A stretch of 32,000 nt of DNA from an uncultured Candidatus Brocadia sp. (GCA_964490485.1 CAZBCT010000003.1:35280-67279); one strand, 5' to 3'. Positions 3,493 to 20,990 are shown, numbered from the stretch's first letter. Numbers and translations are program-made. The notes: generated from the letters alone by a model not told the origin.

Positions 3493-3538
3493 TAGTACCA
3501 TCACGGACTTGATCGGATATTTTATCATCATATCCATA

Positions 3539-3566: not shown

Positions 3567-3646
3567 GTATCACGATAAATTTTTATGATATCTGTAATAA
3601 AAGACAACATATAGGCTGTGTAATCCATGTTCGCCAGGAGAAGAAA

Positions 3647-4408: not shown

Positions 4409-4420
4409 AAAGAGTGAAAC

Positions 4421-4473
4421 GGCGAACCATAAGATTGACCAGAATTTCGTCTTGTCATCCACATCTGTTATTT
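4421..4473 (+). other. attC-like element after cassette A (short, weak palindrome)
   Basis: It runs from GGCGAAC to GTTATTT over 53 nt. Partial pairings are AAC/GTT, AGAT/ATCT and TGAC/GTCA. It is shorter and less palindromic than canonical attC sites. Confidence 0.3.
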
Positions 4474-4542
4474 GGCTATAAATGCCGACAATCTTCGTGA
4501 TTATTTATGTGTATTTTTGGTATTGATGTGGGGGGAAATTTT

Positions 4543-5175: not shown

Positions 5176-5304
5176 CAATTGCGTGCACTTGAACGAGTGC
5201 CACAGGACGCTTTTTCGGCATATGGTTGGTTTAAGGAGTGTAAAACAATTTTTGGGCAAGCTAGGGTGATGCAGTGGCACTCGTCAGTGACGCTGGCGTT
5301 CGAC
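5170..5304 (+). other. attC-like imperfect palindrome after cassette B
   Basis: 135 nt. ACATAAC overlaps the TAA stop and the element ends in GTTCGAC. The left arm gcgtGcactTgaAcgagtgccac (5181-5203) pairs with gtggcactcgtcagtgacgc (5274-5293) over 20 bp. Three single-base bulges all fall on the stop-proximal arm. Confidence 0.5.
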
Positions 5305-5339
5305 GGAAAGAGAACAGATAGCATACGTATCGGTGATAG

Positions 5340-6335
5340 ATGACTGACAGTACTGGAAAAAACAATGCCATTGTCCCAGCGCAACCACAACAGCTAGCGG
5401 TGCGTCATGTATGGCTCATCGAGAGAGGCATTCATTCGCTCCCAATTCTAGGAATAACCGAGAGCCGTGTTAAGGAATTTTGTTCAATCCTTGAGGATTC
5501 TGACTTTCTTAACCGCGAAATAACACTGAAAACAATAGTAGATATTGGGACTCACATCAGGTCATGCAGACGGCACCTTGACTCGCTCATCTTTCCGTTA
5601 GTTAAAAACTTTTACTTTTGTTTCGAAGAATCAGAGCGTGAAAGTCGTGCCAGCGGTCACGAACCTCACCCTAGAGAGCGTGAATACACTAAGCTTTCTT
5701 TCGCGGCACTGGAGGCGTTAGTCGGCCCTTTAATGAGTCCCGATGAGGCGATAATGGATATTGTATACTTTGGAACGACTGCCTCGCGCATACGTGCTAT
5801 CGACTGGCTCTCAGATAATAAACAAAGACTTACTACAGCTACCCATGACTTATTCTCTGATTATTTGCGCACGATGCTCCTTTCCACTATACAGAGCACA
5901 CCGTTATTTCTTGCACTGAAATATGCGGATGCAGAGATACACGATCATATTGAGGAAGCCATATACTTTTTTATAGACAAGATTATTCTTGAGAACATAC
6001 CACCGGACGAGCTTAAGGAAAAGGTCGGATGTTACGTTTGTGGTTTATCTTACAACGAGAAAGCCTCCCAAGAGGCTGTAATCTATGCTCTTGGCAAGTT
6101 AGCAGAATTGGGTGATCCCACATATGTGGAATGTGCCTGTGAGATGTTCTTTGTGATAGCGGAAAAGTATAGAGATTTAGACAGGTACTCTGACGATGAA
6201 CTGGAAATGATTTCCTGTGCGTATAAGAAATGTATGAAAGCCCTTTTCGCGCGGTTTTCATCTAACGGACTTGAAGTATACAAATACAAGGAACTTGTTA
6301 TGGAAGAGCTCAAACGTCGAGGATTGCATGGGTGA
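5340..6335 (+). CDS. Hypothetical alpha-helical protein with HEAT-like repeat signature (cassette C-D, first gene)
   Basis: 331-aa ORF. Segments such as AVIYALGKLAELGDPTYVE resemble HEAT/PBS-lyase-type repeats. The stop (6333-6335) overlaps the next gene's ATG (6328). Confidence 0.55.
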   Translation: MTDSTGKNNAIVPAQPQQLAVRHVWLIERGIHSLPILGITESRVKEFCSILEDSDFLNREITLKTIVDIGTHIRSCRRHLDSLIFPLVKNFYFCFEESERESRASGHEPHPREREYTKLSFAALEALVGPLMSPDEAIMDIVYFGTTASRIRAIDWLSDNKQRLTTATHDLFSDYLRTMLLSTIQSTPLFLALKYADAEIHDHIEEAIYFFIDKIILENIPPDELKEKVGCYVCGLSYNEKASQEAVIYALGKLAELGDPTYVECACEMFFVIAEKYRDLDRYSDDELEMISCAYKKCMKALFARFSSNGLEVYKYKELVMEELKRRGLHG

Positions 6336-7113
6336 ATATATGAGCGGGAGCGCACAAGGACGGCAAACGCCGGAAGATATCGAACTTGAGAGAAAACAAG
6401 AGGATCTTCGTGAACTCGAAGCAGAGTTTGCTGAAAAGGAACTTAGGCTTGCTACTTTACGCGCCGAACTGCATCACTTTGATATGCGATACATCAGGCA
6501 TGTCGGAAGCTTGTATACGGTTCTTGATGACTTGGAAGCGCAAATTGCCGAAGAGGTAGCACGCAAGCACCCTCGAAATGAACGTGCAAGGAAAATGGCA
6601 GAACATGCCCGCTCCAAAGCGCGAAAATCGGCGTCTGAAGCAACGCCATCCGATGAAACGTATGTTTCAGGAGACGAATTCAAGCCATCTGAAAGGTTGA
6701 AGGCACTTTACAGATCAGCAGCAAAGGCCATCCATCCTGACCTTGCCAGCGATAATGCCGATTGTGCGCGTCGCCACAAGGCGATGGCATCAGTAAATGA
6801 AGCATACGAAAAGGGAGACGAGAAGCGCATTAAAGCCATCATTGAGGAGTGGGAGTCTAGCCCTGAATCGGTGAAAGGCGAGGGAACTGCTGCCGGGCTT
6901 GTCCGAATAATCCGGCGTATTTCTTTAATCCGCAAGAGGCTTGACAGTATTAGAAATGAGATTGACCACCTCCAGAGTAGCTCTCTGGCACTATTGAAGC
7001 GGAAGGTTGATGCGGGACTCGCTCAAGGACGGGACATATTGAAGGAAATGGCAGTCGGAATTCAGGCAGAAATCCAGGAAGCGGAAGAGCGACTTGCTCA
7101 GATATGTCAATAG
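6328..7113 (+). CDS. Coiled-coil protein with a J-domain (HPD motif)
   Basis: LKALYRSAAKAIHPDLASDNADCARRHKAMASVNEAYEKGD is a J-domain helix II-HPD-helix III signature. It is flanked by heptad-like charged coiled-coil segments. The start is ATG 6328 (overlapping the upstream gene) or ATG 6340. Confidence 0.7.
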   Translation: MGEYMSGSAQGRQTPEDIELERKQEDLRELEAEFAEKELRLATLRAELHHFDMRYIRHVGSLYTVLDDLEAQIAEEVARKHPRNERARKMAEHARSKARKSASEATPSDETYVSGDEFKPSERLKALYRSAAKAIHPDLASDNADCARRHKAMASVNEAYEKGDEKRIKAIIEEWESSPESVKGEGTAAGLVRIIRRISLIRKRLDSIRNEIDHLQSSSLALLKRKVDAGLAQGRDILKEMAVGIQAEIQEAEERLAQICQ

Positions 7114-9745: not shown

Positions 9746-9933
9746 GTCAATCTTCATATAAAACATACACCGTTAGGCAGAAAATATATAAAATCACCCA
9801 TAAAAACTCAAAGATATAGTGCCGAAAAATGAGGCACTAAAATTGCAACTTATTGAGTTACTGAAGATTCGATTTTTACTTGTTGAACTTGGGTTATGAT
9901 CGGCTATTTATTTTGTGGTAGATTCGCATACGC

Positions 9934-11166
9934 TTAATCCATTCTGCTTATCACAAGACATGAATTATTTCCATCATAATCCATGGTATTTATTATGACG
10001 TTCCGGATTTCTTTTTTAAAGGGTCTTTCAAGGATAAGATTCAGATTAATCTCCGGGTCTTTGTTGCAGTGATTCATGATGTGAGGTATTTGGCCTGTGT
10101 TTATTGACATGATTGATGAAATGATTTGTGCTGCACCGGCGGTTCCGTACGATTCGCCGATGGTCGATTTTATTGCAGATACCGGAATACGAACATTCCC
10201 TGTGTCGAATAACGATTGGATAGCCTTTGCCTCAACCGCATCCTGCATCTTGCATCCGTTTGCATTAGCGCTGATAAAATCAAGGTCTTCCCTTTTTACT
10301 CCAGAGTCTTCCAGCGCTTCATGCATGGCCTTTTCGGCACGACGCACCCGTATATCCGCCGAATGGTCTTTACCGCCCACGAAGGTATTCCCAAGTCCCT
10401 TTACCTCCGCATAGATATGGGCGCCCCTGTCCAGGGCGTGCTGAAGTTCTTCCAGAATAACCACGCAACTGCCTTCTGCCATGACAAAACCGTTTCTCTC
10501 TTTATCGAAAGGCAGGCTCGCCTCTCTTGTACCATCAAGACCGGACAACAAACCGCGCAGGTAAAATATGAGATACAGATCAATGGATATCTGCTCGACA
10601 CCGCCTGTCACGATTACCTTTGCCATATCGCGCTGGATCATTTTGAATGCATCTCCTATGGCATCGGTGCTTGATGTGAAACCAGCAGAAATGGTGCGCG
10701 CAAGCCCCTTCATCTTAAAGATGACCGATACGTAATTGATGGAAGAGTTTAAAGCCACATCGTAACTGAGCATGGGCGACAATTCGGAGGGATTATTTCG
10801 TATGATTTCATAAAAGTAATCGGTGGTCTCGGAAAAATTTCCCAGCGATGAACCGATGACAATGCCCATTTTCTCCGACAGGGAACCATCCGTCGGGAGC
10901 CTTGCATCGTCAATGGCCATCTTGGAAGCAGACCCCAAAAATCGTGTGCCTTTGTTCAGATACTTTAGACCTTTACTACCAAGGTATATCTCGGGTTTAA
11001 GGTCTCTTACTTCCCCGCCGAGCTTGCATTTATACGGAGAAAGGTCAAGAGAGGCCATCGGCGCAATGCCAGATTTCCCGGCGATAAGATTATCCCAAAA
11101 AACCTCTTTTCCGCATCCAAGAGGGGATACGACACCTAAACCGGTAATAACGACTCGTTTTTTCAT
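9934..11166 (-). CDS. Beta-ketoacyl synthase paralogue lacking the Cys-His-His catalytic triad (chain-length-factor-like partner)
   Basis: The product has a KAS fold (MKKRVVITGLGVVSPLG...). Aligned to the adjacent KAS, Cys becomes Phe (ISAGFTSS vs LNACSSG). His becomes Asn (ISANANG vs INAHGTG), and the second His becomes Glu (STIGESYG vs SMIGHLMG). The likely start is ATG 11166. Confidence 0.85.
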   Translation of the reverse strand: MKKRVVITGLGVVSPLGCGKEVFWDNLIAGKSGIAPMASLDLSPYKCKLGGEVRDLKPEIYLGSKGLKYLNKGTRFLGSASKMAIDDARLPTDGSLSEKMGIVIGSSLGNFSETTDYFYEIIRNNPSELSPMLSYDVALNSSINYVSVIFKMKGLARTISAGFTSSTDAIGDAFKMIQRDMAKVIVTGGVEQISIDLYLIFYLRGLLSGLDGTREASLPFDKERNGFVMAEGSCVVILEELQHALDRGAHIYAEVKGLGNTFVGGKDHSADIRVRRAEKAMHEALEDSGVKREDLDFISANANGCKMQDAVEAKAIQSLFDTGNVRIPVSAIKSTIGESYGTAGAAQIISSIMSINTGQIPHIMNHCNKDPEINLNLILERPFKKEIRNVIINTMDYDGNNSCLVISRMD

Positions 11167-11251
11167 TGCACACCCGACAAAACACGGACAAACAAAGTTT
11201 ATCCGTACCACCCAAAAAACCGCTTAAATAAAATGAAAATTCCTCTTTGCT

Positions 11252-11363
11252 GGTTCAATCGTCCTCGATTGAACCGAAACATTTGGTATAATTCCGTCTC
11301 ACTGCACAAGTTCACGCTTTAGAGTAACATTCAAATATATGGTTCAATCTGCAAGATTGAACC
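11252..11363. repeat. Two related hairpins in the KS-KS intergenic region
   Basis: GGTTCAATCG-tcct-CGATTGAACC (11252-11275) and GGTTCAATCT-gca-AGATTGAACC (11341-11363). Both are perfect 10-bp stems sharing GGTTCAAT. Confidence 0.6.
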
Positions 11364-11407
11364 AGCCTTGAGGTTTGCTTCGTCCATTCGGCAAGCTCAG
11401 GACATGC

Positions 11408-12619
11408 TTAACCCATCCTACTAAATATTGTAGTTGCATTGTTTCCGCCGAAGGCAAAGGAATTATTTAATACGTGATCCACTTTTACCTCGCGCATCAC
11501 ATTGGGTACGTAATCAAGGTCGCATTCCGGATCGGGGGTTTCGTAATTAATCGTCGGAGGAATTACTCCATGTCTCAATATCAGACAGCAGACGACTGAT
11601 TCCACGGCACTCGCTGCGCCCATAAGATGACCAATCATCGATTTGGTGGAACTGCAGGGAATCTTATATGCGTCTTCGCTAAATACGCGTTTTATAGCGG
11701 TTGTCTCGGTCTTGTCATTGTGCGGAGTTCCTGTGCCATGTGCATTGATGTACCCAATTTCCTGGGGAGAAAGCCTTGCCATCTTCAACGCATCGCTCAT
11801 GCACTTCACCGCCCCGTCACCTTCGGGATGGGGTGCGGTCATATGAAATCCATCGCAGCTTAACCCATAACCTGCCAGCTCAGCAATAATCGGTGCCCCG
11901 CGTTTTTTGGCAAATTCGTATCGTTCCATGATCAGTATCCCTGCCCCTTCGCCTATCATGAGTCCCTGGCGGTTTTTGTCGAAGGGTTGACAACGCTCAG
12001 GAGCTAAGGCCTTGAGATTATGAAAGTGGGTAAATTCCGTCTGAGGGATCATGTCACCGCCACCGACCATTACCACGTCAACCTTATTATCCACCAGGAG
12101 GTCATATGCCCAGGAAATGGCGTGATTGCCCGACGAGCAGGCGTTCAGCGAGATCATGGTTGGGCCTTCAAAATCAAAGTATTTAGACAGGACATTGGCG
12201 ATCGAATTGGGTGGGTAAACGGCAGCAACGATTTTATCGAAACCGTTATCTTTTCTCGAGGTGTCTAACCGCAAGAGTCTCTCAAACGGTGTCAATTCGG
12301 CTGCCAAGGTTCCTATGGCAATACCAAATCGCTCCCGGTTGAATTTTTTATCACCTAACAAACCACTTTCTTGCAACGCTTCCCTGGCTGCATAGTAGAC
12401 ATATTTATGGATTGTGTTTTCTTTGATCTGATTTTCTAGTTCAAAGTCCCATTGAAAATTTTTTACTTCGCAGGAACGATGCACCTTATATTTTGAGGTG
12501 TCGAAGGACTTCATTTCGTTGGCGCCGTTCCTGCCCTGGATGAATGATTCCCAGCTTTGTTTAACGCCAATCCCAATAGGTGTGACCAATCCCAATCCTG
12601 TAATTACGACCTTTGACAT
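11408..12619 (-). CDS. Beta-ketoacyl-ACP synthase, FabF/FabB (KAS I/II) type, catalytically intact
   Basis: The Cys-His-His triad is present as NACSSG, YINAHGTGTPHND and SSTKSMIGHLMGAASA, with a C-terminal FAFGGNNATTIF. The likely start is ATG 12619; the ORF track begins at TTG 12628. Confidence 0.9.
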   Translation of the reverse strand: MSKVVITGLGLVTPIGIGVKQSWESFIQGRNGANEMKSFDTSKYKVHRSCEVKNFQWDFELENQIKENTIHKYVYYAAREALQESGLLGDKKFNRERFGIAIGTLAAELTPFERLLRLDTSRKDNGFDKIVAAVYPPNSIANVLSKYFDFEGPTMISLNACSSGNHAISWAYDLLVDNKVDVVMVGGGDMIPQTEFTHFHNLKALAPERCQPFDKNRQGLMIGEGAGILIMERYEFAKKRGAPIIAELAGYGLSCDGFHMTAPHPEGDGAVKCMSDALKMARLSPQEIGYINAHGTGTPHNDKTETTAIKRVFSEDAYKIPCSSTKSMIGHLMGAASAVESVVCCLILRHGVIPPTINYETPDPECDLDYVPNVMREVKVDHVLNNSFAFGGNNATTIFSRMG

Positions 12620-12731
12620 ATATTTCAATCTTTAAACAAGAAAGGTCAACTATTCACATTAATTAATCCAACGAATATGTTGACCTTACAAACAATGCTT
12701 AACCCTCCAAAGAAAGGAGGAATTTCCGCTG

Positions 12732-14213
12732 TTAAGACGATGTCTCAATCGGCGTCAATTGTACCTTTTTCCCTGATTTTTTCGATTGTTGATATCGTTT
12801 TAATGCCTCGTCATAGAATCCTGATGTCTGCAATTCTTTGAGATTTTGGATCAGGTGTTGGTAAACGGACTGCCAATCCAGATTGACCCTGAATGCAAAC
12901 ATGGCGGCATTCATGTTATCTTTCAGCACCTCTTTCGCATTTTGGAATCTCTGCCGCAATACCTCGGTGGCATAAATTCTGTCATACAGATATTGAAATC
13001 CATCGATAAGTTCCTGAAGGGACATGTTTTTCAGGACATAGGTGAGATGATGAGACGTGTAATACTTCCAATCCTCCGGAAAGTTTGTCCTGAAAAGCCT
13101 TCCTTCGCCGTTTAACCGGTGATACAGCGGCGTATTAATGAACGGACACAAAATACCGCAGGTCATGATGTCGACATGGGAATCCAGGACAAAATCGGCA
13201 ACCTGCTTAAAGGTATCGGGGGTATCGGCATCATTGCCAAAGACCATGGTCCCCCACACGGCAAGTCCGTGTTTGCGGATATTGGCTATCGCCTCAAAAT
13301 AATTTTCAATGGAGATGCGCAAATTTACGTTCTTGTTCATCGTCTTCAATGCCTCTTCATTGATGGATTCAATCCCAATGAGCATCCCGACGCACCCGCT
13401 TTTTTTCATATATTCAAGGGTTTCATCATCTTTATAGATATTGAGCGAGGTAAACCCGAACCAGTTCTGGTAAATACCCCTTTCCACCATACCCTTGAAA
13501 AGGTCCCGAACACGCTCATTAGACTTTTTGCTGTGTCCGTAAAAATTTTCATCTGTCAGGATCAAACCGCGATATTGACCCTTGATGGATTCGAATTCAT
13601 CAAGGACGTCTTCAATAGGTCTTTCACGATATTTCCTGCCCTGAAACTGAGGCACAGAGCAGAACTCACAGCTAAACGGGCATCCGGCGGTAGTTATAAT
13701 GCCTGAATACCGGTATTTATATTTATCCTTCAAATATTTTCTATCAGGCCGCAACCCCTGATACAACTCCATGGGCGTCAGGACGCCGTCGTATCTTTTC
13801 TGGAGACACCCTTTTTCAAAATCACCAACGATTTTTTCCCAGGTAGTAACAGCTTCCCTCGTAACGACGCAGTCCACATATTTTGCCGCCTCTTCCGGAT
13901 AACTCGTTGCGTGAATACCGCCCATGATTACCGGTATGCCCCGCTTCCGGCAGGCAGTAGCTATCTGATAAGCCCGGTGGGCCTGATAACTTACCGACGT
14001 GATACCGACCAGGTCGGCTCCACCAAAGGTAATATTTCCTGTATTTTCGTCAAGTGCAAGTTCCTGGGTTTCATCGATGATATCGACTTGCCAGTGTTTT
14101 GGAGTCAATACCTTCAGATAGCCGAGATTTACCGGCATTTGATTTAATACGGAGACATTCTCCTCGCCAACATTTCCAATCGGATGTGGATTGATTAATA
14201 CAAGTCTTTTCAT
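12732..14213 (-). CDS. B12-binding-domain radical SAM enzyme (class B type)
   Basis: 493 aa. The N-terminal cobalamin-binding-like Rossmann segment (LVLINPHP...DLVGITSVSYQ...PVIMGGIHAT) is followed by the CPFSCEFC radical SAM motif and a long C-terminal helical extension. Confidence 0.9.
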   Translation of the reverse strand: MKRLVLINPHPIGNVGEENVSVLNQMPVNLGYLKVLTPKHWQVDIIDETQELALDENTGNITFGGADLVGITSVSYQAHRAYQIATACRKRGIPVIMGGIHATSYPEEAAKYVDCVVTREAVTTWEKIVGDFEKGCLQKRYDGVLTPMELYQGLRPDRKYLKDKYKYRYSGIITTAGCPFSCEFCSVPQFQGRKYRERPIEDVLDEFESIKGQYRGLILTDENFYGHSKKSNERVRDLFKGMVERGIYQNWFGFTSLNIYKDDETLEYMKKSGCVGMLIGIESINEEALKTMNKNVNLRISIENYFEAIANIRKHGLAVWGTMVFGNDADTPDTFKQVADFVLDSHVDIMTCGILCPFINTPLYHRLNGEGRLFRTNFPEDWKYYTSHHLTYVLKNMSLQELIDGFQYLYDRIYATEVLRQRFQNAKEVLKDNMNAAMFAFRVNLDWQSVYQHLIQNLKELQTSGFYDEALKRYQQSKKSGKKVQLTPIETSS

Positions 14214-14596
14214 GAACCTTCCTCTTTTTTGGGCACCAATAATACCTGGGCAATGGCATAGTCCTGGCAGTGGGATAAGGATACAGAAATATTATCAATA
14301 TGTTTCTTATCTGCCATTTCTTTTACACTTCCATACAGATTCAAATAGGGCCTGCCCATTTCGTCATTTAAGAGTTCAATATCCGTCCATTTCATTTTAC
14401 CGACCCAGCCAGTCCCCAGCGCCTTGAACAGGGCCTCTTTTGAGGCGAAACGAGCTGCAAAATGCTGATATTTGTTCTTCCTTTGTTTGCAGTATTCCAC
14501 CTCTTTTTCTGTATAAATCCTTCGCAAGAAATCCTCATTGGCGGAGAACAATTTTTCAATCCGTTTTATTTCTATAATATCAATACCAACATACAT
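14210..14596 (-). CDS. acpS: Holo-ACP synthase (4'-phosphopantetheinyl transferase)
   Basis: 128 aa with MYVGIDIIEIKRIEK...FAARFASKEALFKALGTG, typical of AcpS. Its stop overlaps the radical SAM start by 4 nt (ATGA). Confidence 0.9.
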   Translation of the reverse strand: MYVGIDIIEIKRIEKLFSANEDFLRRIYTEKEVEYCKQRKNKYQHFAARFASKEALFKALGTGWVGKMKWTDIELLNDEMGRPYLNLYGSVKEMADKKHIDNISVSLSHCQDYAIAQVLLVPKKEEGS

Positions 14597-14671
14597 AAAT
14601 GATACCCAGTGTCTGGCAATTTCAGTTATTGTAACTACTTACATCATAAGTATCTATTTGGAGAAAAGAGC

Positions 14672-14700
14672 ATTTTACAGGGTTGCAAAATTAATGTCAA
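14672..14700 (-). promoter_or_regulatory. Sigma70-type promoter candidate for the acpS operon
   Basis: On the minus strand, TTGACA (14700-14695) is followed by a 17-nt spacer and TAAAAT (14677-14672). It lies about 75 nt upstream of the acpS ATG. Confidence 0.5.
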
Positions 14701-14970
14701 CGACAATTTACCACCCGACAATTGCCATATAACGGACAAGGGGAGAAGGTTTGCCACCTGTTTACAGGTATAGGTAAATTCTGAATTGTTTTGAATTCTC
14801 CATAATCGCAGGGAAAGGAACTCGACGAGAATGCAAGAGAAGTCTGGAGAATTTCGACAACAAACTTCGTTCAATACCGAAAAAAAAACCTTAATGCAAA
14901 AACAGGAAACAGCTCACCCCTCTGGAGTGAAAGAAATAAATAAATTCATAGGGATATTTTTAAGAGATAG

Positions 14971-15217: not shown

Positions 15218-15996
15218 AAAGCCAAGCATCTTGTCGTAACTCTTCATCCGGCAGCAATCAGCCAAGCTTGCAAACTTCGCGATGAGGCAATCACTGCCGC
15301 AGGGCTTCGCAAGGCGCTATCGGTATTATTGGTGGCCGAGCCAGGTCTTGATGCGGAAAAGACAGCAGAGGTCCTCGGAACAAGCCGCCGAACAATTTTT
15401 CGCAAACGAGAGGAATTTCGCCATCAAGATGATGCATCGAGAAATTCTTGGGGTGGGGGTGGGCGTCGCCGTTTCTCTCTATCTATAGGGGAGGAACGGG
15501 AATTCCTTTCAGCATGGGAAGCAGCGGCAACAGCAGGTGGTGTTCTTTCTGTGCCTGCTGGGCGCCATCGCCCCACAGGCCAGTGGTTAGTCTTGCCCTG
15601 GTACGGGAGTTTAGGTATGAGTATGCAGCGGTAAGTCCGTGGGACGGAGAGATTGATCGTATGACAAGAGAAAAGATGAATACTGAAAGTATGAGTTGTT
15701 TTCTAAAACAGGTAAGTAAGGCACATCCGAATGAGTTTGATGTTATGATTGTTGATGGTGCGTCATCCCATAAAGGCAAAGAACGTAAAATTCCAAAAAA
15801 CATGGCGCTGGTGTTTTTGCCGTCATATCCTCCTGAATTGAGCCAGGCAGAGCAGATATGGAATATACTTCGGCGCGACTATTTTGCTAACAGGGTATTT
15901 GATTCTCTGGATGCAGCGACAGGGCAGGCAAAGCGGGGATTTACTATTATGGTGAAAAACAAAGAGGCAGTAAGAAATTTGACAAATTGGCATTGA
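15218..15996 (+). pseudogene. IS630-family transposase remnant (5'-truncated, internally deleted or frameshifted)
   Basis: One frame gives an HTH part (LVAEPGLDAEKTAEVLGTSRRTIFRKREEF...GGGGRRR) with no start codon. A second frame gives the DDE C-terminus (MIVDGASSHKGKE...FLPSYPPELSQAEQIWNILRRDYFANRVFDSLD). The middle of the catalytic domain is missing. Confidence 0.7.
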
Positions 15997-16048
15997 ATTG
16001 GCGACATCTTGATTGCATAATGGAATAAGATGCATTCAAATGAATACT

Positions 16049-16267
16049 AACAATCCAGTCGAAGCCTGCTATCCCAGCGACTTTTTTCTCGTCATTTTCC
16101 AGTGTCACCAAAGTGTCCATCCGTATGTCCTCAACTGCAGCCATACTATCAAACACTTTGTTCGCAAACCACTTCTCGCATATCTCATCCCAGAGATGTT
16201 CCACCGGATTGCATTGTGGGCTATAAGCGGGCAACCAAACCAACCGCATGTTTTGAGGGATTTTCAC
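16049..16267 (-). pseudogene. Second IS630-family transposase C-terminal fragment
   Basis: LVWLPAYSPQCNPVEHLWDEICEKWFANKVFDSMAAVE...GFDWIV is the C-terminal about 70 aa of an IS630-type DDE transposase. A stop lies immediately upstream. It sits tail to tail with the plus-strand remnant. Confidence 0.65.
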
Positions 16268-16448
16268 TACGTTTACTCTTTTTACCAGGATGACTACGAG
16301 ATCTTTTCAATCCTCTTGTCATACGCATCTGTCGCCTATCTCGCTCTTCACGTTGATCGTGTTGCCCATCATTTCACAGAAGCTTTTGGTCATAGCAAGC
16401 CCAATCCCGCGCCACGATATTTGCTGTGCAATCAAACCCGATGTTGTA

Positions 16449-16718
16449 TCAGTGTGTTGGTGTAATTCTTTCGATTTCATCGCCGTGCGGCGTGGTCAGA
16501 TGGACACGAATAGGCACGCCGGAAGCAGCTGCGGTCTGCAGTTCTCGCAGCGCAACCTCGTGCGTAGGGTTGTGGTGCAACAACCGGTAGATACGCGCAC
16601 TTTCAAAAAACATTACTTCGGTGTGACCCTTGGCTTCGCGCACGCGCGCGACAGTCATCCATCGCTCGCAACTGTCTTCTTTGATCAAGTTACCCTCAAC
16701 AAGTGGCCAAATTGGCAT
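16449..16718 (-). CDS. Small protein paralogous to the N-terminal domain of the adjacent protein-glutaminase homologue
   Basis: The 89-aa segment WMTVARVREAKGHTEVMFFESARIYRLL...LRELQ...PIRVHLTTPHGDEIERITP aligns at about 30% identity to residues about 9-77 of the upstream protein (ILTVAAIRSTKGAVTEILFHERQRIYTLS...LYRLQ...PVKVSLNLRRGEIERTSEP). Its start overlaps the upstream gene's end by 23 nt. Confidence 0.65.
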   Translation of the reverse strand: MPIWPLVEGNLIKEDSCERWMTVARVREAKGHTEVMFFESARIYRLLHHNPTHEVALRELQTAAASGVPIRVHLTTPHGDEIERITPTH

Positions 16719-17649
16719 AATTGATCAGGGTGGCCTCGGTGCTAACGTAGTTCGGATCGGTACTGAATCCCCCGCCATAGGACGGTGCGTACGCTGTGCC
16801 TGGCTGTATCGAGTAACTAGTAACGTGTGCATTGGCATGACAGTTCTTATTCTCCTGCGCCGCAAGCCAAGTACTAAGTAACACCGGTTTATCGAACATG
16901 CCGGGGTCGATTACCATCGCCAGCGTCAGCTTGACCGACGGCAAGCTTCTCGGTAATTTAAGCTGAAGCCGCACACGCAGCAACGGAGCTACATGGTACC
17001 ACCAGGTTACACAACAACCGCCCCATTTGTCCGCCTTTACCGCCAGCTTGTCGTTGTTAGCGGTGGCGAAGCTGAACACCTTCTCAACACAATAACCCCA
17101 TCGCTTCAGGATAATTCGCCGCATCTGGTGTGCGCGTGCATAGCAACCATCGCGCACATACTGGAACGGAATGCACGGCGGTTCTGCAGGTGGACCGGCG
17201 AGGTGACACGAAAGTTTCGCACAGAAATCGAAAATCTCCTTAGCCTTCGCGTAGTTTGGTACGATCTTCTCGCACAGCTTAAATACTGGCCACTTCAGGT
17301 ATAGGTCGGCTAAATTGAAGGTTATCGGGTCGATCTTCTCTAGCTCAATCGGCACAATTTTTTGGGGCTTCTCAAGGGGTAGGCGCTCACGTACGAGGAT
17401 TTCAAGTTCCTTTACGGACGGTTCGGACGTGCGCTCGATTTCTCCACGCCGTAGGTTTAAGCTGACCTTGACCGGCTGCTGCTTTTTGAGCGCTTCTTGC
17501 AGCCGATATAGGATTTGCTCGTCTTTGACTGTCCGTGCACTCAGCGTGTATATACGCTGTCTCTCGTGGAATAGAATCTCCGTTACTGCCCCTTTAGTAC
17601 TACGAATTGCGGCAACGGTTAAAATGTCCGATTCACGCTGGGTAGCCAT
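16696..17649 (-). CDS. Protein-glutamine glutaminase (protein-glutaminase / papain-like deamidase) homologue with a novel N-terminal domain and no signal peptide
   Basis: PCIPFQYVRDGCYARAHQMRRII, CCVTWWYHVAPLL and MVIDPGMF match, from memory, the Chryseobacterium protein-glutaminase blocks PCITFRYPVDGCYARAHKMRQIL, CCVAWSYHVAILV and IIDPSLF (Cys-His-Asp triad). A strong RBS GAGGGGAGG precedes the ATG at 17649. Confidence 0.8.
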   Translation of the reverse strand: MATQRESDILTVAAIRSTKGAVTEILFHERQRIYTLSARTVKDEQILYRLQEALKKQQPVKVSLNLRRGEIERTSEPSVKELEILVRERLPLEKPQKIVPIELEKIDPITFNLADLYLKWPVFKLCEKIVPNYAKAKEIFDFCAKLSCHLAGPPAEPPCIPFQYVRDGCYARAHQMRRIILKRWGYCVEKVFSFATANNDKLAVKADKWGGCCVTWWYHVAPLLRVRLQLKLPRSLPSVKLTLAMVIDPGMFDKPVLLSTWLAAQENKNCHANAHVTSYSIQPGTAYAPSYGGGFSTDPNYVSTEATLINYANLATC

Positions 17650-17704
17650 GTCTTACCTCCCCTCGAATAAATGATAGGAATTTGCTTTTTTAGCTTCGAA
17701 AAGT

Positions 17705-17733
17705 ATTTAATCCAAAAGCGAAAAAGATGTCAA
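17705..17733 (-). promoter_or_regulatory. Sigma70-type promoter candidate inside cassette 5, upstream of the glutaminase gene
   Basis: On the minus strand, TTGACA (17733-17728) is followed by a 17-nt spacer and TTAAAT (17710-17705). It lies about 55 nt upstream of the ATG. Confidence 0.45.
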
Positions 17734-17797
17734 GGTTTTTAATTCATTGATGCTACCATTTTGAAATATTAATAGTTACACAAATGTTGCGCATAAA

Positions 17798-17926
17798 ATA
17801 TAACACGGGTGTCACCTGCGCGAAAGGGAAAGAGTACTGAACGTTCCGAAAGCACAAAACTTGAAAAATGCACTGAACTCTGAAATTACGCTACTGCTTT
17901 TGCATCAGGTGGACGCATTGTTAGAT
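17798..17926 (-). other. attC-like imperfect palindrome after the PIN cassette
   Basis: Read on the minus strand it runs from ATCTAAC to GTTATAT over 129 nt. The outer arms ATCTAACA/ATATAACA pair, a mismatched stretch of about 7 nt follows, and then the inner box CACCTG/CAGGTG pairs. Confidence 0.5.
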
Positions 17927-18105
17927 GCTGCTGTTTGTACGGTTTTTGAAGGTAAAGATTTGATTGGATGTCCGTACTTCTGGCCGTACTCCTTTTCTTT
18001 CTTTTTTAAATCTGCACAAATCGCGCGCAAGTCAAAATTGAATCGCTGGGCATGTTTCTTGCGGGCTTCACGTACTTCTTCTACTATTGGGTCTTTCATC
18101 GTCAT
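17905..18105 (-). CDS. Putative antitoxin partner of the PIN protein
   Basis: 66 aa, MTMKDPIVEEVREARKKHAQRFNFDLRAICADLKKKEKE. Its ATG overlaps the PIN stop (ATGA). It resembles, from memory, small proteins encoded downstream of this PIN subfamily. Confidence 0.55.
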   Translation of the reverse strand: MTMKDPIVEEVREARKKHAQRFNFDLRAICADLKKKEKEYGQKYGHPIKSLPSKTVQTAASNNAST

Positions 18106-18575
18106 TCTCCTAATAACTCTTCTGGTGAACATATTGTTGGACACTGATACCCTTCGGCTTCAACCAGCGATATTATCTTTGCTTTCATTTGAGCGTTGTT
18201 TATATGTGTAAAGTTCCACGTCAAAAGATAGTCCATCCCGTTTATGGTTGCCACGGCAATATGAAGTGCATCTTCGGGGTACTGCTTCGGTATTGGCCCA
18301 TCTTTTATTAATAGCGAAGCTAAATGTTCTGCTTCATTGCTTATGGACAGAACGGGTATCTTCGAAATCGCTGATAATCTCTTCTGGGCCGCTTCGGCAT
18401 CCCCATACTCGGCTTCTTGAACAACCAATGCGGAGATATGCGGCTCAAATATCTTGAGAATCTCAGGCCATTTCTCTCGAGTAATCTCCTGACGTCCGGC
18501 TATAACCAAATCTCTGCTTGGTTTCGACGTGTAGTAGCTTACTACGCTCGTTTCGATGTAAACCGTTTCTTTCAT
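18102..18575 (-). CDS. PIN-domain (VapC-like) toxin
   Basis: 157 aa. MKETVYIETSVVSYYTSKPSRD...QEAE...EDALHIAVATINGMDYLLTWNFTHI shows a PIN-like acidic residue pattern. Confidence 0.75.
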   Translation of the reverse strand: MKETVYIETSVVSYYTSKPSRDLVIAGRQEITREKWPEILKIFEPHISALVVQEAEYGDAEAAQKRLSAISKIPVLSISNEAEHLASLLIKDGPIPKQYPEDALHIAVATINGMDYLLTWNFTHINNAQMKAKIISLVEAEGYQCPTICSPEELLGE

Positions 18576-18607
18576 ACATCCTTTGGTTTAAGAATCTGTT
18601 TCTACAC

Positions 18608-18677
18608 AGTTAACGAGAAAGCTCACTGGCGGCAATGGAGCACAGCGGAATTGCCGTCTGGTACAGCGTTGTTAGGT
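18608..18677 (-). other. attC-like element after the ParE cassette
   Basis: Read on the minus strand, ACCTAAC (overlapping the TAA stop) to GTTAACT, 70 nt, with a central 7-bp stem CGGCAAT/ATTGCCG. Confidence 0.45.
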
Positions 18678-18968
18678 TTTGATTCTGTTAATCCAATACA
18701 TTGGTTCACGGTGTAAGTGTGCAATAGCAATAACATAAATATGGCCTTTTTCAATAGAGTATAATACTTTGTAAGGAAACTTATGAAGAATATACCTTCT
18801 AATATTTTCACTTTCCTGAGAACCAATTCCTGGCATTTTTTTGATAATATTAATGGCTCTTTTGACTTCTTGTTCAAATCTTTTTCCCAAACCTGTTACT
18901 TCAATTTCATAATATTCTTTTCCATCATCAAATTCTTTTTTAGCCAATTCGTCGAATATCACTCTCAT
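18672..18968 (-). CDS. RelE/ParE-family toxin
   Basis: 98 aa. The pattern ...RRYILHKFPYKVLYSIEKGHIYVIAIAHLHREP is typical of the plasmid-stabilisation ParE/RelE fold. Confidence 0.8.
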   Translation of the reverse strand: MRVIFDELAKKEFDDGKEYYEIEVTGLGKRFEQEVKRAINIIKKMPGIGSQESENIRRYILHKFPYKVLYSIEKGHIYVIAIAHLHREPMYWINRIKT

Positions 18969-18973
18969 AAAGC

Positions 18974-19177
18974 TTATCTAAATACCTCTTCTGCAGGTAT
19001 CCCTTGTGTTTTACCTGCTCTGTAATTTTTAAGTCTTGATTCAGCTTCCTGTATCCATTTTTTTGATATCTCCGGATCTGGCTTGTCTAAGCTGGTTACC
19101 AAAGCCTCAATTAATATAATTTTGTCCTGCGGTTTTAATGCCAATGCTTTTTCAATTAATGTGTTATTAACTGACAT
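18974..19177 (-). CDS. Addiction-module antitoxin (TIGR02574-like putative addiction module component)
   Basis: 67 aa, LALKPQDKIILIEALVTSLDKPDPEISKKWIQEAESRLKNYRAGKTQGIPAEEVFR. It lies 5 nt upstream of the ParE-like gene. Confidence 0.75.
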   Translation of the reverse strand: MSVNNTLIEKALALKPQDKIILIEALVTSLDKPDPEISKKWIQEAESRLKNYRAGKTQGIPAEEVFR

Positions 19178-19206
19178 ACTTGTATTCCTTTCTAGTAATT
19201 TTTTAC

Positions 19207-19266
19207 ACCTAACGGTTTAAATCAATGGTGACTTTTTTTACCGTCCGCTGGATTTGATTGTTATAC
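19207..19266 (-). other. attC-like element after the DUF4258/DUF2283 cassette
   Basis: Read on the minus strand, GTATAAC (overlapping the TAA stop) to GTTAGGT, 60 nt. The inner pairing AATCAA/TTGATT plus GAC/GTC is weaker than in the other sites. Confidence 0.4.
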
Positions 19267-19488
19267 GATTTTTTTTAATTTAAGTATTTTGGCTTGTGAT
19301 GATTCCAATATTGAATCGCGGAGAAAAGAACTTGCCTCTAATATTTCTATACCAATTAATTCACCGCTTTCATTCAACTCAGCCGTAATATTTGGGCTTA
19401 ACTCAATGCTATCTGCTTCTTTTTCCTCAGAAATAACTATATGCAGAATATCTTCATCTTTAAAATATGCCATCTTCGTTTTATCCAT
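19261..19488 (-). CDS. DUF2283-family small protein (putative antitoxin)
   Basis: MDKTKMAYFKDEDILHIVISEEKEADSIELSPNITAELNESGELIGIEILEASSFL shows the typical DUF2283 pattern. Its start overlaps the upstream gene's stop by 8 nt. Confidence 0.7.
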   Translation of the reverse strand: MDKTKMAYFKDEDILHIVISEEKEADSIELSPNITAELNESGELIGIEILEASSFLRDSILESSQAKILKLKKIV

Positions 19489-19768
19489 ATATGAACCTTC
19501 CTGTTTTAAGTCGAAAATTAATTTGTTGACGCGTAGTAGCATGAATTGAGACAGGGATTATTTCACCTCTAAGTTGCTCATATGGAATTATAACCAGCCT
19601 ATCATCATGTTTACCTACTGCAATAAAACGTTGGGTTGCAGTATCGAAGTATATTTCTCCTGAATACCGTAATATATTTTCAATTTTTGGAAGTTCAAAT
19701 CCTCTTAATTCTGTTCTATACTTCATATAGTCAGTCCATACGATCTTTGACTCTTCAGGGGTTCTCAC
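19481..19768 (-). CDS. DUF4258-like small protein (putative toxin)
   Basis: 95 aa with a GTG start at 19768 after GGAGGGG. The assignment rests mainly on pairing with a DUF2283 protein. The family call is from memory and tentative. Confidence 0.5.
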   Translation of the reverse strand: MRTPEESKIVWTDYMKYRTELRGFELPKIENILRYSGEIYFDTATQRFIAVGKHDDRLVIIPYEQLRGEIIPVSIHATTRQQINFRLKTGRFIYG

Positions 19769-19799
19769 ATCCCCTCCAATATGTTATATTTAATTTACC

Positions 19800-19859
19800 G
19801 TATAACGCCGGCGCTCAGTGGCGCGGCTTTTTCGCGTTCGCTGCAGCGCTCTGTTAGAC
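19800..19859 (-). other. attC-like element after the 141-aa cassette
   Basis: Read on the minus strand, GTCTAAC to GTTATAC, 60 nt, GC-rich palindrome. The stop-proximal arm GCGCT-G-CAG carries one extra G relative to its partner GCGCTCAG. An extra G in that arm is a known feature of attC sites. Confidence 0.55.
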
Positions 19860-19876
19860 GCTTCTATGTTAGTTCA

Positions 19877-20302
19877 CTAGCTCGGCGGCATCATTATCGG
19901 CTCTCCGGGCACCGTCCCCTGCGAAGGAACACGTTTGTTCTTTCGTGATCTTATTTCTTGACCATTCGAAAGACGCACCCGACCGAGGGTGAATATCTTC
20001 TCTCCAAGATCTGAGGGAAGGCTCTCAGCTTCTACCCATGTTTCCCATGTCTCATCAGGTCTCAATCGCTTCGGTAGGGGACGGTCATGAGTCTGCGCGT
20101 GGATTTGAGAATCCGCTGCAAACCACACATGAGTAATTTCGACTTCCCGGTCACGTGACAAGTTCGTGACATTTAGGAAATAGCACGATCTTCTTGTTTG
20201 AGTGAAATATGCATGGTGCACCATAAGCATCACTCTTCTCCTTCCGGAGACCATCTCCCAAAGGCGTTGGGGAATCCACGTGATCAAGCCAGAGATTTCC
20301 AT
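19877..20302 (-). CDS. Hypothetical protein (single-gene cassette)
   Basis: 141-aa ORF with no recognisable motif. It is bracketed by the perfect 10-bp inverted repeat TGTTAGACGC (19852-19861) / GCGTCTAACA (20320-20329). The ATG lies only about 20 nt from the 5' core. Confidence 0.55.
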   Translation of the reverse strand: MEISGLITWIPQRLWEMVSGRRRVMLMVHHAYFTQTRRSCYFLNVTNLSRDREVEITHVWFAADSQIHAQTHDRPLPKRLRPDETWETWVEAESLPSDLGEKIFTLGRVRLSNGQEIRSRKNKRVPSQGTVPGEPIMMPPS

Positions 20303-20352
20303 AATGCACCTGAATCTATGCGTCTAACAATGTTATTGGCAGGTTTTCCATA

Positions 20353-20380
20353 AATATACAAATAGTATAGCGTAAATCAA
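20353..20380 (-). promoter_or_regulatory. Sigma70-type promoter candidate upstream of array 2
   Basis: On the minus strand, TTGATT (20380-20375) is followed by a 16-nt spacer and TATATT (20358-20353). It lies 25 nt upstream of the first GTTAGAC core. Confidence 0.4.
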
Positions 20381-20644
20381 GATATAATTGACATACAAAA
20401 TCTCACTACCATAAGTTCTGACTTGTTATCATTACAAATTGAGTGATATTAAGAAAATAGGCTAAGTATTCATAAATAAATATCCCTGGGAATTTGACGT
20501 TATACCACCCTTTGTCCGCTAACCCGGCGGCTCTCTGCCACACTCCAATACCGGTGGGTTTTCCCATCTTTCGTTCGTGATTTTACACGGTGATACATGC
20601 AAGTATTTTCGCAGTTTCTCCTGCATGCGCCAATAGGGCAGAGC

Positions 20645-20749
20645 GGCACTACAAGCCGTTTTTAAAATTCATCCCTTTAATACCAAGGGTACCCCGGTCA
20701 TACCTGCAAAAAAAATAACCGTTTTGGGAGGTGAATTACGAAAGTCGGG
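20645..20749 (-). repeat. Copy 2 (inverted) of the ~105-bp repeat
   Basis: Its reverse complement aligns end to end with 14971-15074 at roughly 80% identity. Confidence 0.7.
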
Positions 20750-20840
20750 TTAGGGGAGGGTGATCTTTCCTCTCTCACCCCACCTTAACCTAGGGGGGAG
20801 GAACTCTAACTTGAAATTCCTACATCACGTTAAAATCATC

Positions 20841-20990
20841 GTAACAATTTAGTTTTTTGAAAAAGTAGGGGCGAAGCATTTGCCCGTTTTGGTATGAGTG
20901 CGTTCATGACAATTATAGCAAATGCTTCGCCCCTACCCTGCACGACAAATATCACAATTATTGGAAATTTTCAAAAAACTAAATTGTTAC
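20841..20990. mobile_element. MITE copy B, intact
   Basis: 150 bp. It has perfect 23-bp terminal inverted repeats, GTAACAATTTAGTTTTTTGAAAA (20841-20863) and TTTTCAAAAAACTAAATTGTTAC (20968-20990). The inner 19-bp perfect inverted repeat lies at 20865-20883 / 20918-20936. It is flanked by the 8-bp direct duplication AAATCATC (20833-20840 and 20991-20998). The element has no coding capacity. Confidence 0.8.

Follow-up and report, generated by a model that had tools for sequence, protein, structure and literature searches.

An integron gene-cassette array with an attI-like site, lacking an integrase gene in a 32-kb Candidatus Brocadia window

Organisation of the locus

The window, that is, the whole 32-kb stretch of DNA from an uncultured Candidatus Brocadia sp. 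that was analysed, carries a series of small genes on its minus strand that is interrupted by imperfect palindromes. In window coordinates and in the order of the minus strand, the region comprises the following features.

20841-20990, strand not assigned: MITE-like element with 23-nt perfect terminal inverted repeats
20329-20488, minus strand: attI-like platform, corresponding by homology to the intI-proximal intergenic region of a Brocadia integron
20322-20328, minus strand: putative attI × attC junction core GTTAGAC, with the G from attI and TTAGAC from cassette 1
19806-20327, minus strand: cassette 1, 522 bp, 51% GC, with a 141-aa ORF (19877-20302) and attC E1
19213-19805, minus strand: cassette 2, 593 bp, 33% GC, with a 95-aa ORF (19481-19768), a DUF2283 protein (19261-19488; Pfam) and attC E2
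18614-19212, minus strand: cassette 3, 599 bp, 34% GC, with Unstab_antitox (18974-19177), ParE (18672-18968; both Pfam) and attC E3
17804-18613, minus strand: cassette 4, 810 bp, 43% GC, with a PIN-domain protein (18102-18575), a 66-aa partner (17905-18105) and attC E4
16394-17803, minus strand: downstream flank, with a Gln_deamidase_2 protein (16696-17649) and an 89-aa partner (16449-16718)
15448-16267, strand not assigned: two IS630-family transposase fragments, taken as the downstream boundary of the region

The four cassettes thus span 522–810 bp, with a GC content ranging from 33% to 51%. Three of them are two-gene modules resembling toxin–antitoxin pairs, clear family support being limited to the antitoxin/ParE pair of cassette 3; the Pfam match of the PIN-domain protein in cassette 4 was weak and slightly below the cutoff. 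The 141-aa product of cassette 1 had 127 homologues and matched no Pfam or NCBIfam family.

The preliminary description had counted the glutaminase pair as a fifth cassette ending at a core ATACAAC (16449-16443), which the data did not support, and the array consists of four cassettes. Model R2 (see below), run with its filters off, found no attC in this segment, and the supposed core has no attC behind it and reads ATGCAGC in the copy from B. carolinensis. There, a 90% identical glutaminase module (L032) occupies a different locus without attC sites, and its homology ignores the proposed boundaries, spanning 17778-16394 and thereby starting 26 nt inside the supposed start and running past the supposed end. 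The IS630 fragments farther downstream, both partial, were recognised by NCBIfam transpos_IS630 (E = 1.4e-20 and 2.1e-9) and Pfam DDE_3. Logan contigs of the same strain end at these fragments.

The attC elements and the mobility of the cassettes

Each cassette ends in one of the following elements, whose cores are denoted R'' (5') and R' (3').

19800-19859, minus strand: attC E1, 60 nt; R'' GTCTAAC (19859-19853), R' GTTATAC (19806-19800)
19207-19266, minus strand: attC E2, 60 nt; R'' GTATAAC (19266-19260), R' GTTAGGT (19213-19207)
18608-18677, minus strand: putative attC E3, 70 nt; R'' ACCTAAC (18677-18671), R' GTTAACT (18614-18608)
17798-17926, minus strand: attC E4, 129 nt with a long variable loop; R'' ATCTAAC (17926-17920), R' GTTATAT (17804-17798)

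Two covariance models were trained without any window sequence, R1 on 20 attC sites of class 1 plasmid integrons and R2 on 30 plasmid sites plus seven anammox sites from other genomes. Both serve as surrogates for the attC model of IntegronFinder, whose retention limit is E ≤ 1. The best four matches of R2 in the 32-kb window were E1–E4, each at full length, on the minus strand and at exactly the coordinates given above; covariance scores in the reverse orientation were far lower. Under the same modelling, divergent bona fide attC sites score 30–37 bits. With R1 and R2, respectively, and with E-values that are rough throughout, E1 scored 33.2 bits (E = 3.8e-7) and 35.0 bits (E = 6.5e-9), E2 23.7 bits (E = 2e-4) and 27.6 bits (E = 1.9e-6), and E4 14.2 bits (E = 0.11) and 19.2 bits (E = 1.4e-3). 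E3 was missed by R1 and reached a noise-level 12.7 bits with R2 (rough E = 0.22); given this marginal score, orthology and position suggest that it is an attC. Its orthologues score 31.2 bits in Kuenenia and 16.5 bits in B. sinica, the changes with respect to them sit in the L'' box, and the L box is out of register in E3, which is partly decayed.

The lengths given in the preliminary description (60, 60, 70 and 129 nt) were correct and lie within the range of canonical attC sites, which are about 57–141 nt long and placed 3' of an ORF with the coding strand as top strand; on the minus strand, each element lies behind the final ORF of its own cassette or overlaps with it. All 10 core motifs quoted there, from 20328 to 16443, were likewise found at the positions given. 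Each element opens with nnnnAAC and closes with GTTnnnn, the R'' cores of E1, E3 and E4 fit the consensus RYYYAAC, and GTATAAC of E2 as well as several R' cores depart from the consensus (RYYYAAC/GTTRRRY) at one or two degenerate positions. Three cores had been said to overlap a stop codon, which holds for R'' of E2 and E3 but not for the others, as R'' of E1 is 17 nt downstream of the stop and that of E4 lies within the 3' end of its ORF.

Because cassettes recombine at G|TT, the TTnnnn with which a cassette opens is complementary to the nnnnAA in the R'' of that cassette. This complementarity was reproduced as first described, with 10, 8 and 7 contiguous nucleotides for cassettes 1–3, 5/7 for cassette 4 (opening GTTAACT) and 6/7 for the proposed fifth pair. 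Over the four variable core positions, cassette-wise pairing reached 14/16, the best among 24 permutations, compared with 9/16 for pairing within sites. The junction of cassette 4 has possibly decayed.

With regard to folding, E1 and E2 share the length of the class 1 aadA1 attC (60 nt) and exactly its register, R''-5 nt-L''(bulge)-loop-L'-6 nt-R', including both unpaired bases, and the class 1-trained model detects the two; beyond the cores, however, their sequences are unrelated to it, and their hairpins are much less stable (–13 and –5 vs. –19 kcal/mol). Like aadA1 attC, the bottom strand of E1 (–13.1 kcal/mol) has a pair of one-base bulges on the 3' arm at a distance of 6 bp, and in E2 top-strand C16 and A23 are unpaired, leaving G and T on the bottom strand. 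The extra G reported for E1 is present on the top strand, so the extrahelical base of the bottom strand is C rather than G; in E2 and E4, the model alignment places a canonical top-strand C, and hence a bottom-strand G, as a bulge at the canonical position. The bottom-strand folds reproduced the aadA1 bulge pattern in E1, but the energies of E1–E4 did not differ significantly from those of shuffled sequences (z = –0.45 to –1.24; aadA1 control, –4.9). The L-box pairs covary over 20 attC sites of these genomes, with compensatory changes in six of nine pairs and a covariation score of 0.43, compared with 0.16 in shuffles, in an alignment that was itself fitted to the model.

Mobility at the level of single cassettes is documented by copies of cassettes 1, 2 and 3 in other genomes, namely Brocadia sinica, Kuenenia, Scalindua, Loosdrechtia, a Nitrospirota MAG and a soil contig, where nucleotide homology begins and/or ends at the GTT cores or no more than a few bases away. 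The closest homologue of the cassette 1 product (77% aa identity) is encoded in a GC-rich metagenome array (L093–L095); in the soil contig L093, homology starts exactly at GTTAGAC (window 20328 = L093 1420), and the copy directly follows that contig's own attC. Cassette 2 has copies with 85–92% nucleotide identity in Ca. Loosdrechtia (L105), a Nitrospirota MAG (L109) and Ca. Scalindua japonica (L110), each with an attC at the same 3' position; the right boundary is exact in all three genomes, homology stopping at the R' GTT (window 19211), and the left one falls at or within ~20 nt of the R' core (19809 in L109, 19800 in L105 and 19788 in L110). For cassette 3, nucleotide identity is 90–95% with the copies of the B. 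sinica integron (L112), L115 and Kuenenia (L116); homology extends from R' core to R' core (19214/19213 to 18610/18611), both boundaries being exact in all three genomes, and the flanks are unrelated.

The attI-like platform and the missing integrase

A complete integron is present in Candidatus Brocadia sinica JPN1 (BAFN01000001.1, ~647–656 kb; loci L111–L114), and its IntI is full length (323 aa; TIGR02249, 353 bits vs. a cutoff of 265). The region upstream of cassette 1 in the window (20325-20488) shares homology with the intergenic stretch next to intI in this integron, at variance with the initial statement that no clear attI was present. BLASTN returned 73–76% identity over 177 nt (E = 1e-24 to 5e-29) with L112 2972–3146, which in B. 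sinica sits between intI/p110 and the first cassette, and with L115 2556–2730. The alignment is kept up to ...AATAAYATTGTTA and diverges thereafter; the three genomes part right after the common ...ATTGTTA, and the first cassette differs in each. The homology ends at ~20325, at the junction core. Homology and junction pattern mark window 20325-20488 as an attI-like site, which is predicted to function as attI. It includes a promoter-like TTGATT-16 nt-TATATT (20380-20353) directed into the array, which may act as a promoter, a function we infer only, since promoter-like sites were not enriched over shuffled sequences in the promoter scan.

Searches of the window with IntI1 and B. sinica IntI by tblastn gave a best E-value of 0.08, and none of its ORFs encoded a Phage_integrase domain, so that the intI gene adjacent to the array in a complete integron is missing from these 32 kb. 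Where it would be expected, between the platform remnant and a TPR gene, lies the MITE-like element, which occurs in multiple copies and both orientations at other Brocadia loci. L115 carries a truncated intI at the orthologous locus, which indicates that integrase loss does happen in this lineage.

The locus is confirmed as a genuine integron gene-cassette array, with an attI-like site and four cassettes, each terminated by an attC. The integron-type array with attC sites and without an integrase in the window that had been proposed was borne out, and it withstood every check suggested at that stage: scoring with an attC covariance model, comparison with shuffled and permuted controls, and a look for variation of whole cassettes at the G/TT junctions of related genomes. 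Very probably, it is what is left of a chromosomal integron of the Brocadia type whose integrase gene was lost. In IntegronFinder terms it is a CALIN, a class defined by at least two attC sites separated by less than 4 kb and lacking a nearby intI, with four attC sites within 2.1 kb, spaced 0.5–0.8 kb apart in the orientation of the ORFs, all on the minus strand, and no intI nearby in the 32-kb window. This reading must assume relocation, because the array is outside the guaA locus that houses the B. sinica integron.

The same displacement from guaA would suit a CALIN built de novo, in which a trans-acting integrase inserts cassettes at a non-att site (attG, GWT consensus), followed by stacking. 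IntI does insert cassettes at GWT genome sites, which has been proposed as the origin of small CALINs and SALINs (Loot et al., 10.1101/2022.09.11.507474), and the Kuenenia copy of cassette 3 resembles a solitary insertion of this kind in that an upstream attC is missing. For the window this origin is nonetheless improbable, as the 160 nt upstream of the first cassette are homologous to the intI-proximal attI region of B. sinica and L115, with the junction at the same ...ATTGTTA position, and a random genomic target would lack homology to an attI platform. A complete and active integron with intI just beyond the examined region is less credible still: intI adjoins this platform in Brocadia relatives, and the window covers 32 kb of an 82-kb source contig, but in B. 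sinica the gene starts ~450 nt from the platform, whereas in the window platform homology stops at 20488 and the next 11.5 kb are taken up by the MITE and by genes for the TPR protein, MurB and housekeeping functions, and contain nothing resembling IntI. Finally, ordinary inter-operon palindromes (terminators or REP-like) with coincidental cores, an extremely improbable reading that the weak fold z-scores and the frequent hairpins between toxin–antitoxin operons might favour, are already contradicted by attC model matches down to a rough E of 6.5e-9 at exact coordinates and by homology breakpoints elsewhere that coincide with GTT cores, and also conflict with the lack of T-tracts after the stems and with complementarity between cassettes rather than inside each site.

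Relation to known integrons and proposed mechanism

Integrons in Planctomycetes and anammox bacteria are already known, attC models for Planctomycetes exist, and the array is a well-documented example of a known element type. The novelty claimed for it in the preliminary description was overstated, as integrons and CALINs are on record in Planctomycetes (PMC4889954, PMC8352920), the intI of Kuenenia stuttgartiensis has been included in published IntI phylogenies (PMC3607928), and B. sinica has a complete integron. Like the CALINs surveyed by Cury et al. (2016; PMC4889954), the window array is small, carries unknown-function and toxin–antitoxin cargo, has IS elements nearby and is without an intI, both within 4 kb and across the 32 kb as a whole. 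A recognisable intI pseudogene lies within 10 kb of only ~5% of CALINs (PMC4889954), and the window has none either; here, however, the attI-side platform survives and ties the array to the intI-bearing integron of a congener. With the latter it shares the homologous attI/promoter platform, the ...ATTGTTA junction, and the antitoxin/ParE cassette (95% nucleotide identity) with its orthologous attC. The B. sinica integron, in contrast, has kept intI, lies next to guaA and has an acetyltransferase first cassette, whereas the window array is without intI, in another chromosomal neighbourhood and with other attI-proximal cassettes.

Sedentary chromosomal integrons such as the Vibrio cholerae superintegron likewise have small promoterless or self-expressed cassettes, many toxin–antitoxin pairs, and in each cassette an R'' corresponding to the R' remnant with which that cassette begins. 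The window array differs in having four cassettes rather than ~180, heterogeneous attC sites rather than a uniform repeat family, and no integrase; unlike class 1 mobile integrons, it has no resistance cargo.

As to mechanism, the array is proposed to work as in the established integron model, with recombination of E1–E4 by IntI being predicted. On the minus strand, the ~160-nt platform leads into the attI/cassette junction G|TTAGAC (20328) and from there into the four promoter-distal cassettes. The bottom strand of each attC (the plus strand of the window) would form an imperfect hairpin in which an unpaired spacer separates the R box from the L box and some bases are extrahelical. The tyrosine recombinase IntI would recognise this hairpin and cut its R' core between G and TT; excision of cassettes would then take place by attC × attC and insertion by attI × attC recombination. 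With no intI in cis, the array would rearrange only with IntI from elsewhere in the genome or community, and would otherwise be a frozen record. Toxin–antitoxin cassettes of sedentary chromosomal integrons are thought to stabilise the array, and the toxin–antitoxin-like pairs of the window would do the same and bring their own expression signals.

Sites of the attC type also occur beside the conserved KAS-KAS-radical SAM-ACPS lipid cluster in genomes of several Brocadiaceae (L018, L024 and L073, and the window), and the flanks of this cluster could be a preferred landing zone. At the platform, B. sinica has a full-length intI and L115 a truncated one, and the window has none. Tentatively, and with considerable doubt, the anammox bacteria (Brocadia, Kuenenia, Scalindua and Loosdrechtia) may share a lineage-typical chromosomal integron system whose cassettes are traded with unrelated phyla from shared habitats and whose platform repeatedly loses intI. 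If so, the exchange partners would include Nitrospirota and GC-rich soil bacteria, and the cargo would consist mostly of toxin–antitoxin-like pairs and orphan genes.

attC models, matches and site architecture

Two covariance models, R1 and R2, were built from foreign attC sites as surrogates that stand in for the published IntegronFinder and Ghaly attC models. R1 was trained on 20 bona fide attCs cut by hand from eight plasmid class 1 integron arrays (cassettes aadA1, aadA2, aadA5, aadB, aac(6')-Ib, aac(6')-IIa, arr-3, dfrA12, dfrA27, blaIMP-4, blaVIM-1, qacG2, catB3, cmlA5, estX, psp, qacL and others), with a structure of 7 R-box pairs, 9 L-box pairs and the canonical bulge. R2 was trained on 30 plasmid and 7 anammox attCs, with the window sequence excluded. 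The four elements that the preliminary description had proposed as attC sites were all matched by the surrogate models, with identical end points and with E3 marginal:

19800–19859, minus strand: attC E1, closing cassette 1 (R1 33.2 bits, E = 3.8e-7; R2 35.0 bits, E = 6.5e-9)
19207–19266, minus strand: attC E2, closing cassette 2 (R1 23.7 bits, E = 2e-4; R2 27.6 bits, E = 1.9e-6)
18608–18677, minus strand: attC E3, closing cassette 3 (R2 12.7 bits, E = 0.22)
17798–17926, minus strand: attC E4, closing cassette 4 (R1 14.2 bits, E = 0.11; R2 19.2 bits, E = 1.4e-3)

With filters off, E1, E2 and E4 were the best three R1 matches in the 32-kb window, full length and on the minus strand, and all remaining matches had E > 1. 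The top four R2 matches in the window were E1, E2, E4 and E3, followed by E1 in reverse orientation. R1 also detected attCs outside its training set (blaOXA-2, 29.9 bits); the divergent training attCs of arr-3, IMP-4 and dfrA27 obtained 34–38 bits, and E1 thus scores as genuine attCs of divergent sequence do. The noise level, estimated from about 280 kb of other loci with filters off, reached ~12–15 bits, so E3 is marginal on the model alone. Rfam gave zero matches in the window at the gathering threshold. Across 1.18 Mb of other anammox loci, R1 yielded six clear attCs (comparison loci L018, L024, L055 and L073); a tyrosine recombinase in L055, considered as an IntI (31% identity to IntI1), proved to be XerD.

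Each motif quoted in the preliminary description is present on the minus strand where it had been placed, and the element lengths of 60, 60, 70 and 129 nt are correct. The complementarity between the GTTnnnn opening a cassette and the nnnnAAC closing it was likewise reproduced, over 10, 8 and 7 contiguous nucleotides for cassettes 1–3, then at 5/7 and 6/7. At the four degenerate core positions, cassette-wise pairing reached 14/16, the unique maximum among 24 possible pairings, and pairing within sites reached 9/16; with four pairs only, the permutation p-value has a floor of 1/24, and further weight comes from the extended matches.

The layout of E1 and E2 coincides position by position with that of the 60-nt aadA1 attC, in the order R'' (the nnnnAAC end core, 7 nt), 5-nt spacer, L'', loop, L', 6-nt spacer and R' (the inverted GTTnnnn core), with unpaired L'' bases at positions 16 and 23. 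For the E1 bottom strand (window plus strand), the fold has an energy of -13.1 kcal/mol; its 3' arm carries two bulges of one base each, separated by 6 bp, the same bulge topology as in the aadA1 control. The bulged top-strand base of E2 and E4 is C, giving the canonical bottom-strand G; the extra G noted earlier in E1 does exist, but it lies on the top strand, and the bottom-strand base is therefore C. In all four elements the bottom strand folds slightly better than the top strand. The folding energies do not discriminate from shuffles (z-scores -0.45 to -1.24; aadA1, -4.9), and thermodynamics alone would not have picked out these attC sites. Among 20 attCs from these genomes, compensatory changes were found in 6/9 L-box pairs (covariation score 0.43 vs 0.16 shuffled), in an alignment that was itself fitted to the model; the outer R-box positions frequently lacked a pairing partner, a pattern that hybrid array sites would be expected to show.

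Cassettes and their copies in other genomes

Cassettes 1–4 measure 522–810 bp and have GC contents of 51, 33, 34 and 43%, differences in size and composition that are consistent with independent acquisition. Cassette-level variation at core junctions, which had been set as a check, was found in other genomes, where cassettes 1–3 recur with breakpoints at or near GTT cores.

Cassette 3 encodes an antitoxin and a ParE toxin, the latter 96% identical to the copy in Brocadia sinica JPN1 and 89% identical to a Kuenenia stuttgartiensis protein. Nucleotide identity of the cassette is 95% to L112 (B. sinica), 95% to the contig L115 and 90% to L116 (Kuenenia). The homology spans window positions 19214/19213 to 18610/18611, with the GTT of the E2 R' at one end and the GTT of the E3 R' at the other; outside these limits the sequence flanking the cassette on either side is unrelated in each of the three loci. 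The E3 orthologues score 31.2 bits in Kuenenia and 16.5 bits in B. sinica, and E3 departs from them mainly in the L'' box. Because of this core-to-core homology, the scoring orthologues and the L'' changes, E3 is read as a genuine attC that has partly decayed.

Cassette 2 (a 95-aa ORF plus DUF2283) has copies with 85–92% nucleotide identity in Ca. Loosdrechtia (L105), a Nitrospirota MAG (L109) and Ca. Scalindua japonica (L110), each followed at the same position by an attC (33.7, 37.9 and 23 bits, respectively). Homology starts at window positions 19800 (L105), 19809 (L109) and 19788 (L110), at or no more than about 20 nt from the R' core GTTATAC (19806–19800), and stops at 19211, in the GTT of R' (Scalindua). 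The Nitrospirota MAG (JBFLZS010000083) carries an array at 1572–5774 with at least four attCs, whose cargo comprises a TIR-domain protein, the cassette 2 homologue and a PIN pair; this locus shows that cassettes are common to anammox bacteria and another phylum.

Cassette 1 encodes a 141-aa orphan ORF with 127 homologues and without a family. Its nearest copy (77% amino-acid identity) lies on L093, a metagenome contig of high GC content, where an attC (1325–1426) immediately precedes it, and homology begins exactly at GTTAGACGCATAG, window position 20328 corresponding to L093 position 1420.

Of the five cassettes initially proposed, four were retained. The fifth, a Gln_deamidase_2 glutaminase gene with an 89-aa partner (16449–17649), was rejected: R2 with filters off found no attC behind the pair, and a 90% identical module, without attCs, occupies another locus in B. 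carolinensis (L032 7801–9187, AYTS01000195). The homology (window 17778–16394) ignores the proposed boundaries: the first 26 nt of the proposed cassette fall outside it, and it continues for 50 nt beyond the proposed end. The proposed core ATACAAC reads ATGCAGC in the B. carolinensis copy. Beside the L032 module, and on the opposite strand, lies a remnant of group II intron domain V/VI (L032 9425–9499; RF00029, 38.4 bits, just below the gathering score of 40).

The attI-like platform, related integrons and flanking sequence

Searches of the window with class 1 IntI1 and Brocadia IntI as queries returned no IntI-like coding sequence, in agreement with the earlier reading. The accompanying statement that the window has no clear attI does not hold: positions 20325–20488 form an attI-like platform homologous to the intI-proximal intergenic region of B. 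sinica (73–76% over 177 nt, E = 1e-24 to 5e-29). In a four-way alignment the platform is conserved to ...AATAAYATTGTTA and divergent beyond, continuing with GTTAGAC in the window, GTTAATC in B. sinica and GTTATGC in L115, each into a different first cassette; such a pattern is what an attI × attC junction would be expected to give. The conserved platform contains a promoter-like TTGATT-16-TATATT (20380–20353, minus strand); promoter-like matches are not enriched in the region, and the predicted promoter is only a suggestion.

B. sinica JPN1 (loci L111–L114) carries a complete chromosomal integron adjoining guaA:

L112 (BAFN01000001.1 647490–655786), locus coordinates 1565–4355: B. sinica integron

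Its order is a divergent 323-aa intI (TIGR02249 'integron integrase', 353 bits vs a cutoff of 265), the intergenic platform, an ArsN1/PAT-like acetyltransferase cassette with its attC (29.2 bits) and, as second cassette, the ParE toxin–antitoxin cassette. The integron also includes a 110-aa ORF with a weak SAM-like integrase N-domain, and in its last attC the R' is mutated to GATAAAC. Synteny between L115 (ENA ERZ25039461 contig_180531) and B. sinica extends to either side of the integron (guaA; a 580-aa protein; a dCache protein). The L115 integron region (locus 1966–4363) retains only the C-terminal third of intI, 107 residues; its first cassette differs (FRG domain) and its second is identical. 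L115 represents a naturally occurring variant in which the integrase is truncated and a cassette has been replaced, and its comparison with B. sinica indicates that integrase loss occurs in the lineage and that attI-proximal cassettes turn over while the toxin–antitoxin cassette persists. In Kuenenia stuttgartiensis (L116–L119, CP049055.1, about 747–756 kb), the antitoxin–ParE cassette stands alone (locus 3758–4363) and has a strong attC of 31.2 bits; a GGDEF gene and a short-chain dehydrogenase flank it. No attC was detected upstream in these loci, and it looks like a single inserted, SALIN-like cassette.

Two sets of mobile-element scars bracket the array in the window:

15448–16267, opposite strands: two IS630-family transposase C-terminal fragments, downstream of the array
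20841–20990: MITE-like element of 150 bp with 23-nt perfect terminal inverted repeats, upstream of the platform

These scars offer a plausible route by which the array may have been parted from intI. In short-read assemblies of the same strain, contigs end at the IS630 fragments. The MITE-like element has an internal 19-nt inverted repeat and copies in both orientations in Brocadia loci L008–L012 and L034. Between the platform and this element, window positions 20490–20752 align with a Brocadiaceae MAG (L080 4166–4426; 260 nt at 77% identity); the stretch occupies the expected intI position and contains a fragment of a small conserved ORF (…SRTKDGKTHRYWSV…) that has no family match. Family searches gave no support for the ORF at 20500–20649 as a transposase N-terminal remnant. 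Downstream of the array, a histidine-kinase-like fragment (16319–16420) is weak (HATPase_c, 15 bits, E = 0.035).

The window belongs to a Candidatus Brocadia (anammox Planctomycetota) genome; its exact proteins are found again on an NCBI contig of 82,167 bp and on short Logan contigs of identical sequence. Conserved synteny, assessed from 79 anammox loci around the B12-radical SAM gene (12732–14213; 95–97% protein identity to Brocadia MAGs), is confined to 9933–14912. It includes a KAS-KAS-radical SAM-ACPS block (9934–14596) that is conserved across anammox genomes and that we take to resemble the proposed ladderane-lipid cluster. attCs or small arrays also lie a few kb from this cluster in L018 (7977–8899), L024 (17374–17440) and L073 (7741–9803), on the KAS side; the window array is on the ACPS side. 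This proximity could be coincidence, given that these neighbourhoods alone were sampled. A lower-GC stretch (about 40%) at 3509–7113, with four poorly characterised genes (a DUF5677 protein, two domain-less ORFs and a coiled-coil protein), may be another accessory island.

Classification and significance

The array falls under the operational definition of a CALIN, an attC cluster without intI nearby (PMC4889954), and behaves like small sedentary chromosomal integrons with toxin–antitoxin cassettes. CALINs have been discussed as products of integron decay or of insertion at GWT genome sites (10.1101/2022.09.11.507474). Because of the platform homology, decay or rearrangement is favoured here over de novo genome insertion. 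The preliminary description stands for the attC sites, four cassettes and the intI-less array, and fails on the fifth cassette, the absence of attI and novelty. The last was overstated, as Planctomycetes integrons and attC models have been published (PMC4889954, PMC8352920) and IntI phylogenies include the Kuenenia stuttgartiensis intI (PMC3607928). The literature searched nowhere combined integron, attC and Brocadia, so the specific Brocadia case appears undescribed, within a well-known kind of element.

The case leaves the understanding of integron mechanism unchanged; it illustrates that an integron array can be correctly recognised from raw sequence alone. To our knowledge, anammox bacteria cannot be grown in pure culture. 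Their mobile gene pool has been little described, and the array provides a clean, comparatively documented case of integron decay and cassette turnover in these bacteria. Anammox bacteria and Nitrospirota co-occur in nitrogen-removal reactors, and cassettes common to anammox genera and Nitrospirota could therefore mark horizontal exchange in these systems.
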